In this document: positions 2,623-7,255 of the stretch, piece by piece
Layout of the letters: each line of letters begins with the position of its first letter
Position numbering within the stretch: the stretch's first letter is position 1
DNA from: a virus
Taxonomy: Duplodnaviria > Heunggongvirae > Uroviricota > Caudoviricetes
Direction: 5' to 3' (one strand)
DNA: 7,255 nucleotides
IMG/VR virus record: IMGVR_UViG_2706794667_000003
Notes under the pieces: generated by a model
Seen by the model: only the letters and a program-made list of their open reading frames with translations
What the model was told of the DNA's origin: nothing
Databases searched by the model: none
Position numbers and translations under genes: made by a program

Positions 2623-5600
2623 ATGGGTAAAGGCAGCAGTAAGGGGCATACCCCGCGCGAAGCGAAGGACAACCTGAAATCCACGCAGTTGCTGAGTGTG
2701 ATTGATGCCATCAGCGAAGGGCCGGTTGACGGTCCGGTGGATGGATTAAAAAGCGTGCTGCTGAACGGTACGCCGGTCCTGGACAGCGAGGGGAAGACAA
2801 ACTTTTCCGGTGTTACGGTGGTGTTCCGTGCAGGTGAGCAGGAGCAGACACCGCCGGAGGGTTTTGAATCCTCCGGCTCCGAGACGGTGCTGGGTACGGA
2901 AGTGAAATATGACACGCCGATCACCCGGACCATCACGTCGGCAAACATCGACCGTCTGCGCCTGACCTTCGGTGTGCAGGCACTGGTGGAAACCACCTCA
3001 AAGGGTGACCGGAATCCGTCGGAAGTCCGCCTGCTGGTTCAGATACAGCGTAACGGTGGCTGGGTGACGGAAAAAGACATCACCATTAAGGGCAAAACCA
3101 CTTCGCAGTATCTGGCCTCGGTGGTGGTGGGTAACCTGCCGCCGCGCCCGTTTAATATCCGGATGCGCAGGATGACACCGGACAGCACCACAGACCAGCT
3201 GCAGAACAAAACGCTCTGGTCGTCGTACACCGAAATCATCGATGTGAAACAGTGCTACCCGAACACGGCGCTGGTCGGCGTGCAGGTGGATTCAGAGCAG
3301 TTCGGTAACCAGCAGGTGAGTCGCAATTATCATCTTCGCGGGCGCATTCTGCAGGTGCCGTCGAACTATAACCCGCAGACGCGGCAATACAGCGGTATCT
3401 GGGACGGAACGCTTAAGCCAGCATACAGCAACAACATGGCCTGGTGTCTGTGGGACATGCTCACTCATCCGCGCTACGGCATGGGGAAACGTCTTGGTGC
3501 GGCAGATGTGGACAAATGGGCGCTGTATGTCATCGGCCAGTACTGCGACCAGTCAGTGACGGACGGATTTGGCGGCACGGAGCCGCGCATCACCTGTAAC
3601 TCTTACCTGACCACACAGCGTAAGGCGTGGGATGTTCTCAGTGATTTCTGCTCGGCGATGCGCTGTATGCCGGTATGGAACGGACAGATGCTGACGTTCG
3701 TGCAGGACCGACCGTCGGATAAGGTGTGGACCTATAACCGCAGTAATGTGGTGATGCCGGACGATGGCGCGCCGTTCCGCTACAGCTTCAGCGCCCTGAA
3801 GGACCGCCATAATGCCGTTGAGGTGAACTGGATTGACCCAGATAACGGCTGGGAGACGGCGACAGAGCTTGTGGAGGATACGCAGGCCATTGCCCGTTAC
3901 GGTCGTAATGTCACGAAGATGGATGCCTTTGGCTGTACCAGCCGGGGGCAGGCACACCGAGCCGGGCTGTGGCTGATTAAAACGGAACTGCTGGAAACGC
4001 AGACCGTGGACTTCAGCGTGGGCGCAGAAGGGCTTCGCCATGTACCGGGTGATGTCATTGAAATCTGCGATGATGATTATGCCGGTATCAGCACCGGTGG
4101 TCGCGTACTGGCGGTGAACAGCCAGACCCGGACGCTGACGCTCGACCGTGAAATCACGCTGCCGTCCTCCGGTACCACGCTGATAAGCCTGGTTGACGGA
4201 AGTGGCAATCCGGTCAGCGTGGAGGTCCAGTCCGTCACCGACGGCGTGAAGGTGAAAGTGAGCCGGGTTCCTGACGGCGTTGCAGAATACAGCGTGTGGG
4301 GGCTGAAGCTGCCGACGCTGCGCCAGCGTCTGTTCCGCTGCGTGAGTATCCGTGAGAACGACGACGGCACGTATGCCATCACCGCCGTGCAGCATGTGCC
4401 GGAAAAAGAGGCCATCGTGGATAACGGGGCACACTTTGACGGTGACCGGCGCGGCACGGTGAATGGTGTCACGCCGCCAGCGGTGCAGCATCTGACCGCC
4501 GAAGTCACCGCAGACAGCGGGGAATATCAGGTGCTGGCGCGATGGGACACGCCGAAGGTGGTGAAGGGTGTGAGCTTCCTGCTTCGCCTGACCGTGGCAG
4601 CGGACGACGGCAGTGAGCGGCTGGTCAGCACAGCCAGGACGACGGAAACCACATACCGCTTCAGGCAGCTGGCGCTGGGGAATTACAGTCTGACAGTCCG
4701 GGCGGTAAATGCCCGGGGGCAGCAGGGCGATCCGGCGTCGGTATCGTTCCGGATTGCGGCACCGGCAGCGCCTGTCACTATTGAACTGATACCGGGGTAT
4801 TTTCAGATAACGGCGGTCCCGAAACTGGCTGTATATGACCCGACGGTGCAGTTTGAGTTCTGGTTTTCGGAAAAGCGGATTGCGGATATCAGGCAGGTTG
4901 AAACCAGCGCCCGCTATCTTGGCACGGCGCTGTACTGGATAGCCGCCAGTATCAATATCAGGCCGGGCCATGATTATTATTTTTACGTTCGCAGTGTGAA
5001 CACCGTTGGCAAATCGGCATTTGTGGAGGCCATCGGTCGGGCGAGCGATGATGCAGAAGGTTATCTGAATTTTTATAAAGGGTTGATCAATAAAACGCAT
5101 CTCGGCAAGGAGTTGTGGACGCAGATTGATAACGGTCAGCTTGCGCCGGACCTGACTGAAATCAGGACGTCCATTACGAATGTCAGCAATGAAATCACGC
5201 AAACCGTCAATAAAAAACTGGAAAATCAGAGTGCTGCAATCCAGCAGATACAGAAAGTTCAGGTTGATACAAATAATAACCTGAACAGCATGTGGGCTGT
5301 GAAGCTGCAACAGATGAAGGACGGACGCCTTTATATTGCGGGTATCGGTGCCGGTATTGAGAATACGCCAGCAGGAATGCAGAGTCAGGTGCTGCTGGCG
5401 GCAGACAGGATTGCGATGATTAATCCTGCGAATGGCAACACAAAGCCGATGTTTGTTGGTCAGGGCGATCAGATATTCATGAACGACGTGTTCCTGAAAT
5501 GCCTGACGGCTCCGACCATTACCAGCGGCGGTAATCCTCCGGCATTTTCCCTGACACCTGGCGGACGGCTGACGGCGAAAAATGCCGATATCAGCGGTAA

Positions 5601-6102
5601 CGTGAACGCGAACTCCGGGACGCTCAACAACGTCACGATTAATAAGAACTGTCGGGTTCTGGGAAAATTGTCCGCGAACCAGATTGAAGGCGATCTCGTT
5701 AAAACAGTGGGCAAACCTTTCCCACGGGACTCCCGGGCACCGGAGAGGTGGCCATCAGGGACCATTACCGTCAGGGTTTATGACGATCAGCCGTTTGATC
5801 GGCAAATTGTTATTCCCGCGGTGGCGTTTCGCGGTGCTAAACATGAGCGGAAGAATAACAATATTTATTCGTCATGCCGCCTGATAGTGAAGAAAAACGG
5901 TGCTGAAATTTATAACCGAACGACCCTGGATAATACGCTGATATATACGGGTGTTATTGATATGCCTGCCGGTCACGGTCACATGACGCTGGAGTTTTCT
6001 GTATCGGCATGGCTGGTAAATGGCTGGTATCCCACAGCAAGTATCAGCGATTTGCTGGTTGTGGTGATGAAGAAAGCCACTGCAGGCATCACGATTAGCT
6101 GA
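2623..6102 (+). CDS. J: Tail tip host-specificity / central tail fibre protein J (lambda gpJ homolog), 1159 aa, with divergent C-terminal receptor-binding region
   Basis: Translation [54 protein letters not shown]... is near-identical to lambda gpJ as recalled over roughly the first 800 aa. GAGGA RBS lies 4 nt upstream of the ATG. Length is similar to lambda J (about 1130 aa). The last ~350 aa keep only islands of similarity ([58 protein letters not shown]). Confidence 0.92.
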
Positions 6103-6120: not shown

Positions 6121-6148
6121 GGGCACCAGAAATGGTGCCTTTTTTATT
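6121..6148 (+). terminator. Rho-independent terminator downstream of J
   Basis: Stem GGCACC (6122-6127) / GGTGCC (6134-6139) with loop AGAAAT, immediately followed by TTTTTTATT. It lies 19 nt after the J stop. Confidence 0.6.
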
Positions 6149-6169: not shown

Positions 6170-6769
6170 ATGCGTAAAGTTTGTGCAGCCATTTTGTCCG
6201 CAGCCATCTGTCTGGCCGTATCCGGTGCGCCTGCATGGGCGTCTGAACATCAGTCCACGCTGAGCGCCGGGTATCTTCAGACCCATACTGATATGCCAGG
6301 CAGCGATGACCTGAAGGGCATTAACGTGAAATACCGTTATGAGTTTACGGACACGCTGGGGCTGATTACGTCATTCAGTTATGCCAACGCTGAAGATGAG
6401 CAAAAAACGCATTACAGCGATACCCGCTGGCATGAGGATTCCGTGCGTAACCGCTGGTTCAGCGTGATGGCGGGGCCGTCTGTGCGCGTGAATGAATGGT
6501 TCAGCGCGTATGCGATGGCGGGCGTGGCTTACAGCCGTGTGTCGACCTTCTCCGGGGATTATCTCCGCGTAACTGACAACAAGGGGAAAACGCACGATGT
6601 GCTGACCGGAAGTGATGGCGGTCGCCACAGCAACACGTCTCTGGCGTGGGGGGCTGGCGTGCAGTTTAACCCGACCGAATCCGTGGCCATTGACCTTGCT
6701 TATGAAGGTTCCGGCAGTGGTGACTGGCGCACTGACGGTTTCATCGTGGGTGTCGGTTATAAGTTCTGA
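6170..6769 (+). CDS. lom: Lom outer membrane protein (Ail/Lom/PagC/OmpX family beta-barrel), 199 aa; lysogenic-conversion moron
   Basis: N-terminal signal peptide MRKVCAAILSAAICLAVSGAPAWA. C-terminus ...AYEGSGSGDWRTDGFIVGVGYKF ends in the Phe typical of beta-barrel OMPs and matches the lambda Lom C-terminus as recalled. GAGAGG RBS lies 7 nt upstream. The gene is flanked by hairpin terminators and sits at the lambda lom position between J and stf. Confidence 0.9.
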   Translation: MRKVCAAILSAAICLAVSGAPAWASEHQSTLSAGYLQTHTDMPGSDDLKGINVKYRYEFTDTLGLITSFSYANAEDEQKTHYSDTRWHEDSVRNRWFSVMAGPSVRVNEWFSAYAMAGVAYSRVSTFSGDYLRVTDNKGKTHDVLTGSDGGRHSNTSLAWGAGVQFNPTESVAIDLAYEGSGSGDWRTDGFIVGVGYKF

Positions 6770-6796: not shown

Positions 6797-6822
6797 GCCC
6801 GCTGGTTCAGGCGGGCTTTTTG
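6797..6822 (+). terminator. Rho-independent terminator downstream of lom
   Basis: Stem GCCCGC (6797-6802) / GCGGGC (6811-6816) with loop TGGTTCAG, followed by TTTTTG. Confidence 0.6.
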
Positions 6823-6832
6823 TGGGGTGAAT

Positions 6833-7159
6833 ATGGCAGTAAAGATTTCAGGTGTACTGAAAGATGGGGCGGGTAAACCTGTCGTAAATTGTGCGATTGA
6901 ACTGCGGGCCAGAAGAACCAGTCCGACCGTTGTGGCACACGTTGTTGCCACTTGCGTGACGGACAATAACGGTGCTTATGTGATTGAGGCTGAGCCGGGG
7001 TATTACGAGGTTGCGCTTCACTGTAACGGCTGGCAGCCAACCCGTGTCGGGGATATTGATGTGGCACCGACTGATGCACCGGGGACACTGAACGCGTTTC
7101 TGAATGCACCAAAGGATGGTGATTTACGTCCGGAGGTGATGAAGTGTCAGCGCCAGTGA
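6833..7159 (+). CDS. stf: Side tail fibre protein, N-terminal domain only (lambda Stf / orf-401 N-terminus homolog), 108 aa; truncated or recombined relative to full-length stf
   Basis: Translation MAVKISGVLKDGAGKPVVNCAIELRARR... matches the lambda Stf N-terminus (MAVKISGVLKDGTGKPVQNC... as recalled). Similarity continues to ...PGTLNAFL...RPEV, then the ORF ends (MKCQRQ*) at 7157-7159. GGGGTGA RBS lies 5-6 nt upstream of the ATG at 6833. The upstream in-frame ATG at 6791 lies inside the lom terminator hairpin and is unlikely to be the start. Confidence 0.65.
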   Translation: MAVKISGVLKDGAGKPVVNCAIELRARRTSPTVVAHVVATCVTDNNGAYVIEAEPGYYEVALHCNGWQPTRVGDIDVAPTDAPGTLNAFLNAPKDGDLRPEVMKCQRQ

Positions 7160-7245
7160 TATAAGACGGTAATTCGCCATTTGGATTGTCCGCTCCACCC
7201 AACATGTTGTTTCCTTAAGGTTCTCACACCAGAAAGGACATCAAC

Positions 7246-7255
7246 ATGCTGAGCA
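7246..7255 (+). CDS. First codons (MLS...) of an unidentified ORF running off the 3' edge of the window
   Basis: ATG at 7246 is preceded by GAAAGGA at 7232-7238 (7-nt spacing). Only 3 codons are visible, so no identification is possible. Confidence 0.2.

Follow-up and report, generated by a model that had tools for sequence, protein, structure and literature searches.

The stretch of viral DNA analyzed here (7,255 nucleotides, called the window throughout) carries the J gene of a lambda-like prophage of the E. coli/Shigella group. The reading that we favor, with reasonable though far from complete confidence, is that this J is intact, consists of known exchangeable modules, and ends in a receptor-binding domain (RBD) of the type used in the engineered 1A2 chimera, which most likely binds OmpC. 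The product is a full-length lambda-type tail tip attachment protein, scoring 2353.6 bits against NCBIfam NF049904 (lambda_TipJ; curated cutoff, 1950), with residues 1-1159 aligned to profile positions 1-1163. Pfam matches were found at aa 86-207, 330-498, 611-714, 716-818, 872-1000, and 1030-1159, and the domain order (FNIII-A, Phage-tail_3 hub, two Ig/FNIII domains, shaft, Phage_Tail_Tip prism, and C-terminal Ig-like RBD) was that of lambda_TipJ. The features of J and its 3' neighborhood are as follows.

2623..6102, plus strand: J (tail tip attachment/central tail fiber protein), intact ORF, 1159 aa plus stop
2623..5064, plus strand: lambda-like N-terminal part (hub domains, FNIII-A, Ig_J/FNIII-1, Ig_J_second/FNIII-2), aa 1-814, 96% aa identity to lambda gpJ
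5065..5292, plus strand: long alpha-helical shaft (AHS), aa 815-890, 38% identity to lambda, 28 aa longer
5293..5442, plus strand: upper beta-prism central straight fiber, variant form, aa 891-940, 60% identity to lambda
5443..5640, plus strand: conserved island, aa 941-1006 (lambda about 913-978), 88% aa identity to lambda
5641..6099, plus strand: receptor-specificity module of the 1A2/VT1-Sakai type, aa 1007-1159, containing the Ig-like RBD
5710..6099, plus strand: Ig-like RBD, aa 1030-1159, Pfam Ig_GpJ_C
5848..5862, plus strand: variable loop RKNNN, aa 1076-1080 (lambda 1048-1052), the main difference from 1A2 (KEHTD)
6022..6024, plus strand: Gly1134, aligned with lambda 1107, N or D in relatives (N in 1A2)
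5469..5765, minus strand, and 5684..5884, plus strand: short ORFs inside J, taken as antisense or out-of-frame reading frames
6121..6140, plus strand: terminator-like hairpin and T-run directly 3' of J
6170..6769, plus strand: lom (Ail/Lom family outer-membrane protein), from the ORF, E. coli annotation, and synteny with lambda and PhiR55_1
6833..7144, plus strand: N-terminal 104 codons of stf (side tail fiber), starting MAVKISGVLKDG..., cut by an insertion sequence

Relative to lambda, the C-terminal third of J is a mosaic in which replaced and conserved segments alternate. A preliminary description had given J at 2623-6102 on the plus strand and quoted two peptides from it, all of which proved to be correct, and had placed the end of near-identity to lambda gpJ at about nt 5060; indeed, codon 815, the first beyond the 96% identical part, starts at nt 5065. 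In sliding comparisons, DNA identity to lambda was mostly 0.9-0.99 over aa 1-814 (about 0.9 or higher over most of 2623-5040, falling locally to 0.76 at 4770-4859), 0.14-0.64 over 5085-5445, 0.86-0.89 over 5445-5625, and 0.48-0.66 from 5625 to the end. The alternation described beyond this point was borne out at the protein level, with successive identities of 38%, 60%, 88%, and 39%. Moreover, short patches at 4770-4830 and 5070-5100 were unlike all four reference phages, making the mosaic finer than first described.

The shaft (aa 815-890) was 88-91% identical to those of phage 21, PhiR55_1, and VT1-Sakai, and a Pfam scan of J returned no match in the shaft region between Ig_J_second and Phage_Tail_Tip. 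In lambda, the corresponding shaft forms a bundle of three helices (PMC11101478). For aa 806-1159 of the window J, AlphaFold2 run on the single sequence placed helices at 811-822, 826-836, and 844-885, at a low confidence (mean pLDDT, 38.8) that led us to use it only as a weak call of shaft helices; since the best 120 homologues listed were all at least 93% identical, there was no informative alignment for a better model of the C-terminal region. The upper prism (aa 891-940), which lies inside the Phage_Tail_Tip match, was 94-98% identical to the same three relatives, and the island that follows was 92-95% identical to them at the protein level and 0.81-0.96 identical at the DNA level to all references. 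This island is likely the crossover zone between fiber and RBD, and the fusion point used in engineered chimeras (lambda residue 964) falls inside it. Cys960 was unique to the window J; relatives carry R or Y.

Base composition changed along with sequence identity. The replaced blocks had been described as AT-rich, and GC and GC3 were 0.420 and 0.547 over 5065-5290 and 0.490 and 0.526 over 5640-6102, compared with 0.588 and 0.705 upstream in J (2623-5064); the drop in GC3 was significant for both blocks (binomial P = 0.005 and 3e-6, respectively), and lambda J's own C-terminal part goes down only to 0.538 and 0.639. A C-terminus as lambda-like as the N-terminus and free of a compositional break was thus not seen (39% versus 96% identity, with a fall in GC3). 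The antisense open frame from 3553 to 5310, which had been offered as a visible sign of the shift, does exist; however, it is not a marker of the mosaic boundary, because the run without TTA, CTA, or TCA codons extends over codons 312-1044 (nt 3556-5754), through the replaced blocks, and because lambda J has an equivalent run of 705 codons. Upon synonymous shuffling of J, a run of equal or greater length arose in 42 of 2000 trials. The antisense frame was therefore rejected as a feature, being a by-product of codon usage that is common to lambda J and crosses the module boundary.

The distal block, as had been noted, is unlike the LamB-binding C-terminus of lambda (gpJ residues about 980-1132), to which it was 39% identical in amino acids and 0.48-0.66 in DNA. 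The window RBD (aa 1030-1159) was 63% identical to that of phage 21, 61% to that of A8, 92% to that of VT1-Sakai, and 91% to that of PhiR55_1, and both indels characteristic of the A8/phage 21 type were absent from it. High identity without indels over the whole part beyond lambda residue 964 was found with 1A2: 160 of 172 readable aligned positions (93%) were identical, with a few positions uncertain because the 1A2 C-terminal sequence was translated in pieces from an OCR'd PDF (the Nature 2024 supplement) that contained frameshift errors. The 1A2 sequence in turn matched VT1-Sakai at 170 of 172 readable positions. PDB matches for the distal block were 9wca, 8xcj, and 8iyk. Gifsy-1 J was rejected as a close relative or model, its C-terminal region being reported as only 18% identical to that of lambda.

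Published chimeras with the junction at lambda residue 964 deliver DNA via OmpC in a lamB/ompC deletion background (PMC11338833), and PDB entry 9wcb contains A8 gpJ(713-) together with OmpC. The 1A2 chimera works with EDL933-type OmpC and not with K-12 OmpC, and it accepts many OmpC alleles (PMC11338833). By inference from this near-identical tip, OmpC is the best-supported receptor of the window J, and the RBD trimer would most likely dock on OmpC, itself a trimeric porin, as encoded by non-K-12 alleles, and not on LamB. The further steps would be those of the trigger mechanism known from lambda gpJ-LamB structures (PMC11101478), in which the RBD spreads apart, after which the prism twists and the shaft flips, until finally the tail tip opens. 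Since A8 and 1A2 are lambda up to residue 964 and nevertheless have an altered receptor (PMC11338833), the shaft is not a specificity determinant, and the proposal that the first replaced block (5065-5290) contributes to receptor choice does not hold. Receptor choice would be set only by the distal module (aa about 1007-1159), and replacement of the shaft would be a structural variant, either linked or independent.

The preliminary description had gone on to propose a different outer-membrane receptor from that of lambda. The distal specificity module does differ, and its 1A2 relative uses OmpC, but divergence of the RBD from lambda is not in itself evidence of a new receptor, because phage 21, although equally divergent, is reported to use LamB natively, with one mutation adding OmpC (PMC11336670). 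The receptor path of phage 21 is given as LamB to OmpC to OmpF (PMC11336670). This precedent, together with the fact that the window RBD is closer to that of phage 21 (63%) than to that of lambda (39%), would allow the window RBD still to use LamB, perhaps a non-K-12 allele. We regard this as quite improbable, given that the 93% identical 1A2 RBD gave only about 5% delivery into wild-type K-12 MG1655 compared to 98% for wild-type lambda particles and worked in a lamB deletion strain provided with EDL933 OmpC (PMC11338833), even though LamB alleles of other strains lay outside that study. A different departure from OmpC as used by 1A2 is suggested by where the two tips differ. Of the 11 substitutions that separate the window tip from 1A2, six fall in established specificity hotspots (lambda 1048-1052 and 1107), so that the window carries a sub-variant, an allele other than that of 1A2, and its preferred OmpC allele may therefore differ. 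Lambda 1048-1049, which coincides with the RKNNN loop, is a natural indel hotspot (Maddamsetti et al. 2018, PMC6646904), and lambda 1107 is required for lambda's gain of function on OmpF (PMC6646904). The sub-allele is also rare, being present at 99% identity or more in only 8 of the 5426 complete E. coli genomes, and occurs in Shigella proteins. Carriers at this level include E. coli CFSAN029787 and FDAARGOS_943, O121 201805972, VL and RMDEC strains, and S. flexneri SFBU1023. The hotspot substitutions could have moved it to OmpF or another outer-membrane protein, or to a restricted group of OmpC alleles from Shigella/EIEC that 1A2 misses, but we think this unlikely: the backbone is otherwise of the 1A2 type without indels, porin switches in lambda and phage 21 took several mutations, some of them destabilizing and outside the loops (PMC11336670, PMC6646904), and many OmpC alleles are already accepted by 1A2 (PMC11338833). 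That RKNNN and Gly1134 represent a natural retargeting of the 1A2-type RBD to an OmpC allele or other porin that 1A2 and A8 both miss is a doubtful, if conceivable, proposition. If true, it would provide a part, already available in nature, with which engineered lambda delivery vectors could be extended to Shigella or EIEC. The rare loop variant at two known hotspots is the only mildly useful novelty here, and a candidate natural host-range variant for targeting Shigella or EIEC.

The surroundings of J raised the separate matter of whether its specificity is in use at all. The ORF order M-L-K-I-J-lom-stf, in which the upstream ORFs were placed by order rather than by individual family scans, matches the annotated regions of lambda and PhiR55_1, and E. 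coli matches to the window are annotated as gpJ, Ail/Lom, and tail fiber N-terminal domain; a terminator is annotated in phage 21 at the position of the hairpin 3' of J. Homology to E. coli and Shigella stf stops at 7144, and the left end of an IS21-family element follows at about 7145. Gene I contains a run of N standing for about 260 missing bases. With stf truncated and gene I carrying this gap, the prophage may be defective and J perhaps out of use, and the unique Cys960 would fit a relic in a decaying prophage whose specificity has no present function. Such a relic is highly improbable, however, because J reads through 1159 codons without interruption and scores as a full-length family member, because lambda PaPa lacks a functional stf and is nevertheless fully infectious (PMC12617516), and because the run of N is an artifact of assembly or masking and no sign of damage. 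An intact J with a 1A2-type, probably OmpC-binding tip thus remained the preferred reading.

The C-terminal change had been called a swap, which is apt insofar as the window J differs from that of laboratory lambda; in natural E. coli prophages, however, the window form is the majority and that of lambda the rare one. The long shaft was present in 3541 and the window RBD type in 3349 of 5426 complete E. coli genomes, compared to only 98 with lambda's LamB-type RBD, and the top records among the matches listed for the lambda allele were laboratory strains. Lambda-type RBD alleles were absent from the BASEL completion paper and from a 2026 receptor-prediction preprint. That the J specificity region is exchanged as a module has been published before, the region 960-1132 having been reported as an independently recombining module (PMC6646904), and the window J is an ordinary, common natural form. 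Laboratory lambda is therefore not to be treated as the norm for J. The range of bacteria open to a lambda-like phage, or to a delivery particle engineered from lambda, is determined by the C-terminal module of J, and the presence of the 1A2-type module in the window yields a concrete receptor prediction, namely, OmpC in non-K-12 alleles.

Among the closest relatives, partial proteins from Shigella and E. coli showed 99% aa identity over the last 360 aa of J. The full-length module combination of the window is shared by PhiR55_1 (PV340571), vB_EcoS-640R1 (ON470612), and PhiR46_1 and by prophages of E. coli FDAARGOS_943, E. coli CFSAN029787, and S. flexneri SFBU1023. DNA identity to the window was 93.4% for PhiR55_1, 98.7% for FDAARGOS_943 over J, lom, and the start of stf, 98.2% for S. 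flexneri SFBU1023, and 94.6% for E. coli ECMA0423 (exact-pattern scan of genome contigs). A literature search found nothing on the PhiR phages and no receptor data for any phage that shares this combination. PhiR55_1 has a REHTD loop and D at 1134, where the window has RKNNN and G.

Compared with known systems, the window J would be assembled from a lambda-like hub/FNIII part, a long shaft that is the common natural form also seen in phage 21 and O157 prophages, a conserved beta-prism linker, and an Ig-like RBD of the O157-prophage type (VT1-Sakai, CP-933X) that was also used in 1A2. Lambda gpJ (NP_040600; PDB 8IYK, 8XCJ, and 8XCK) has the same family, domain order, neighborhood, and Ig_GpJ_C RBD fold family, but it binds LamB, its shaft is shorter, and its RBD is divergent. 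Phage 21 J (OL657228) has the long shaft and prism in common with the window (89-94% identity), and both phage 21 and A8 (PDB 9wca) have the same RBD fold family and C-terminal end; in them, 4 aa are deleted near lambda 1012 and 5 aa inserted at 1048-1049, whereas the window has neither indel, and A8 accepts K-12 OmpC, which the 1A2 type does not. A8 and phage 21 show about 30 differences between them in the linker and RBD (identity of roughly 82%) and are reported with different native receptors; a few mutations can change receptor use in the J family. VT1-Sakai (AP000400) has a frameshifted J gene whose N-terminal part is 60-66% identical to that of the window, and it is the J of such O157 prophages, CP-933X included, that the 1A2 C-terminus matches. 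The nearest counterpart is 1A2 itself (Brödel et al., Nature 2024, PMC11338833), with the same RBD type, no indels, and a common C-terminal motif; it differs from the window by 11 substitutions downstream of the fusion point and by having, up to residue 964, the short shaft and prism of lambda in place of the long natural shaft.

The window spans the region of a lambda-like prophage that encodes the tail tip. When its ORFs were compared with annotated regions, the gene order was that of lambda and phage PhiR55_1, and the ORFs 5' of the tail tip gene J were taken from their position as the end of H followed by M, L, K, and I, in lambda tail gene order. J matched NCBIfam NF049904 (lambda_TipJ) over its full length with 2353.6 bits (cutoff = 1950). 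In a Pfam scan of J, aa 819-871 matched no family.

ORFs of the window and Pfam matches in J
2623-6102, plus strand: J, 1159-aa ORF
6170-6769, plus strand: lom, downstream of J
6833-7144, plus strand: start of stf, after lom
J aa 86-207: FNIII-A_GpJ
J aa 330-498: Phage-tail_3
J aa 611-714: Ig_J
J aa 716-818: Ig_J_second
J aa 872-1000: Phage_Tail_Tip
J aa 1030-1159: Ig_GpJ_C

The listed 335-aa ORF at 1213-2220 is gene K plus a spurious upstream GTG extension overlapping L, with K-like sequence starting near MTQTESAILAHARR. Gene I holds a 61-N run (2350-2410) that corresponds to about 260 bases by comparison with Shigella flexneri SFBU1023; the reading frames on either side are out of register, and rather than a deletion, the run is a gap of incorrect length left by masking or assembly. 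J and lom are each followed immediately by a terminator-like hairpin with a T-run (6121-6140 and 6797-6816, respectively), and phage 21 has an annotated terminator at the corresponding position after J. An IS21-family insertion sequence, whose left end occupies 7145-7255 (istA start codon at 7246), interrupts stf after about 104 codons. Since homology to Escherichia coli and Shigella stf ends at 7144, immediately before this element, the prophage has no intact copy of stf, at least here.

Alignment of J with its counterparts in lambda, phage 21, PhiR55_1, and the O157 prophage VT1-Sakai (AP000400) bore out the proposal of the preliminary description that, relative to lambda, replaced and conserved segments alternate in the C-terminal third; the peptides and coordinates quoted there matched the J translation exactly.

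Identity of J to lambda J
nt 2623-5040: DNA, about 0.9 or higher (dip to 0.76 at 4770-4859)
nt 5085-5445: DNA, 0.14-0.64
nt 5445-5625: DNA, 0.86-0.89
nt 5625-6102: DNA, 0.48-0.66
aa 1-814: protein, 96%
aa 815-890: protein, 38% (28 aa longer in the window)
aa 891-940: protein, 60%
aa 941-1006: protein, 88%
aa 1030-1159: protein, 39%

Composition was likewise discontinuous, as had been claimed: GC and GC3 were 0.588 and 0.705 upstream of the replaced blocks, 0.420 and 0.547 in 5065-5290, and 0.490 and 0.526 in 5640-6102 (binomial P values for the GC3 drop, 0.005 and 3e-6, respectively), compared to a smaller drop, to 0.538 and 0.639, in the C-terminal part of lambda J. Given the lower identity and the GC and GC3 drop, the C terminus is not as lambda-like as the N terminus, and the mosaic is real and well delimited. 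The codon-aligned antisense frame, also offered as a sign of this shift, proved uninformative, because J codons 312-1044 (nt 3556-5754) lack TTA, CTA, and TCA in a run that spans both replaced blocks, and lambda J has an equivalent 705-codon run. The run reflects J codon usage, not the mosaic. The minus-strand ORF itself (3553-5310, 585 aa), whose end at 5310 is merely the first start codon after a stop, was rejected as a gene and regarded as a by-product of this codon avoidance, as in lambda J.

Two patches differ from all four reference phages: 4770-4830 (about 20 mismatches per 60 nt), within the otherwise conserved FNIII-2, and 5070-5100 (10 per 30 nt), at the shaft start. Their location and divergence suggest that other short tracts have recombined in from an unsampled lineage. 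Cys960 (TGC, 5500-5502), in a conserved prism motif, is Arg in lambda and in the Shigella and E. coli proteins that are 99% identical and Tyr in PhiR55_1, phage 21, and VT1-Sakai; either a private change or a sequencing error may account for the Cys.

In lambda gpJ, the alpha-helical shaft (AHS), a three-helix bundle, is followed by a beta-sheet prism (the central straight fibre, CSF) and an Ig-like receptor-binding domain (RBD) with four receptor-contacting loops; when LamB is bound, the bases of the RBD move apart, the prism twists, the AHS flips and partly converts to beta-strands, and the tip opens (PMC11101478). The first replaced block (aa 815-890) begins where the second Ig/FNIII domain ends, extends to the start of Phage_Tail_Tip, and, by this position, is the AHS, so the earlier guess of a coiled-coil or fibre segment was right. 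A single-sequence AF2 model placed helices at aa 811-822, 826-836, and 844-885 (mean pLDDT, 38.8, too poor for other use). The distal block comprises the linker and the RBD. Inclusion of the first block in a receptor switch could not be upheld, because the receptor changes even in the engineered lambda gpJ chimeras A8 and 1A2 of Brödel et al. (PMC11338833), which retain the short AHS and the prism of lambda; AHS replacement is therefore not a specificity determinant.

The long AHS and upper prism shared 88 to 98% aa identity with phage 21, PhiR55_1, and VT1-Sakai. The RBD was 91% identical to that of PhiR55_1 and 92% to that of VT1-Sakai but only 63% to that of phage 21, which thus pairs the long AHS with another RBD type, showing that the two modules assort independently. 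Residues 960-1132 of gpJ have been described as an independently recombining specificity module (Maddamsetti et al. 2018, PMC6646904), and the conserved island (aa 941-1006), which holds the engineered fusion point (lambda residue 964), is likely a natural crossover zone. Full-length J matches included PhiR55_1 (93.4% DNA identity), vB_EcoS-640R1, and PhiR46_1; E. coli chromosomes matched at up to 98.7% across J, lom, and the stf start, and S. flexneri SFBU1023 matched at 98.2%. Among 5,426 complete E. coli genomes, 3,541 carried the long-AHS module and 3,349 the window RBD type (median, 2 copies per genome), whereas the lambda RBD occurred in only 98, always at at least 99% identity, the top listed records being laboratory strains. 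Hence, the "replaced" form is the natural norm and lambda the outlier; variation of this kind in J has been described before, and the allele is common.

When the last 345 aa of J were compared with the PDB, the top match, above lambda gpJ, was 9wca ("A8 gpJ 713"; E = 1e-118), the chain that occurs together with OmpC in 9wcb. A8 and 1A2 each carry the C-terminal part of a natural gpJ variant from E. coli, joined to lambda at residue 964. Tested in a lamB/ompC deletion background, both deliver DNA via OmpC; A8 can use the K-12 and the EDL933 form, and 1A2 does not accept K-12 OmpC but does accept the EDL933 type and many further alleles. Delivery by 1A2 to wild-type MG1655 is about 5%, versus 98% for wild-type lambda particles (PMC11338833). 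The 1A2 DNA, taken from the supplement, was recoded and carried OCR errors; translated in pieces, it gave 172 readable positions, of which 160 were identical in the window and 170 in VT1-Sakai. This match identifies the window RBD as the 1A2/O157-prophage type, and an RBD 93% identical to it is thus experimentally characterized. VT1-Sakai J is annotated as two overlapping coding sequences owing to a frameshift, so that natural copy is broken, though its RBD type works when transplanted.

Divergence by itself does not prove a receptor change, since the phage 21 RBD is as distant from that of lambda as the window RBD is and yet the reported native receptor of phage 21 is LamB, with OmpC gained by one mutation and OmpF by further ones (PMC11336670); few mutations can shift specificity. 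Across the linker and RBD, phage 21 and A8 share roughly 82% identity, differing at about 30 positions. The proposed change to a different outer-membrane receptor therefore stands on the likeness to OmpC-using 1A2, not on distance from lambda, and OmpC, in its non-K-12 alleles, is the best-supported candidate receptor of the window J.

The window J differs from 1A2 and VT1-Sakai at aa 1008, 1032, 1070, 1076-1080, 1090, 1101, (1109), and 1134. Residues 1076-1080 (RKNNN versus KEHTD) align to lambda 1048-1052, which is among the four natural indel hotspots; residue 1134 aligns to lambda 1107, one of two residues required for lambda OmpF gain of function (PMC6646904). Because these substitutions fall at specificity positions, the OmpC allele range may differ from that of 1A2; the porin itself may differ, though this is less likely. 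Partial proteins of S. flexneri, Shigella dysenteriae, and E. coli that share 99% identity with the final 360 aa of the window J have its RKNNN loop, and A8 and phage 21 carry a 5-aa insertion at the 1048-1052 hotspot. The rare hotspot sub-variant is the sole remaining point of interest in a J that otherwise belongs to a common allele.
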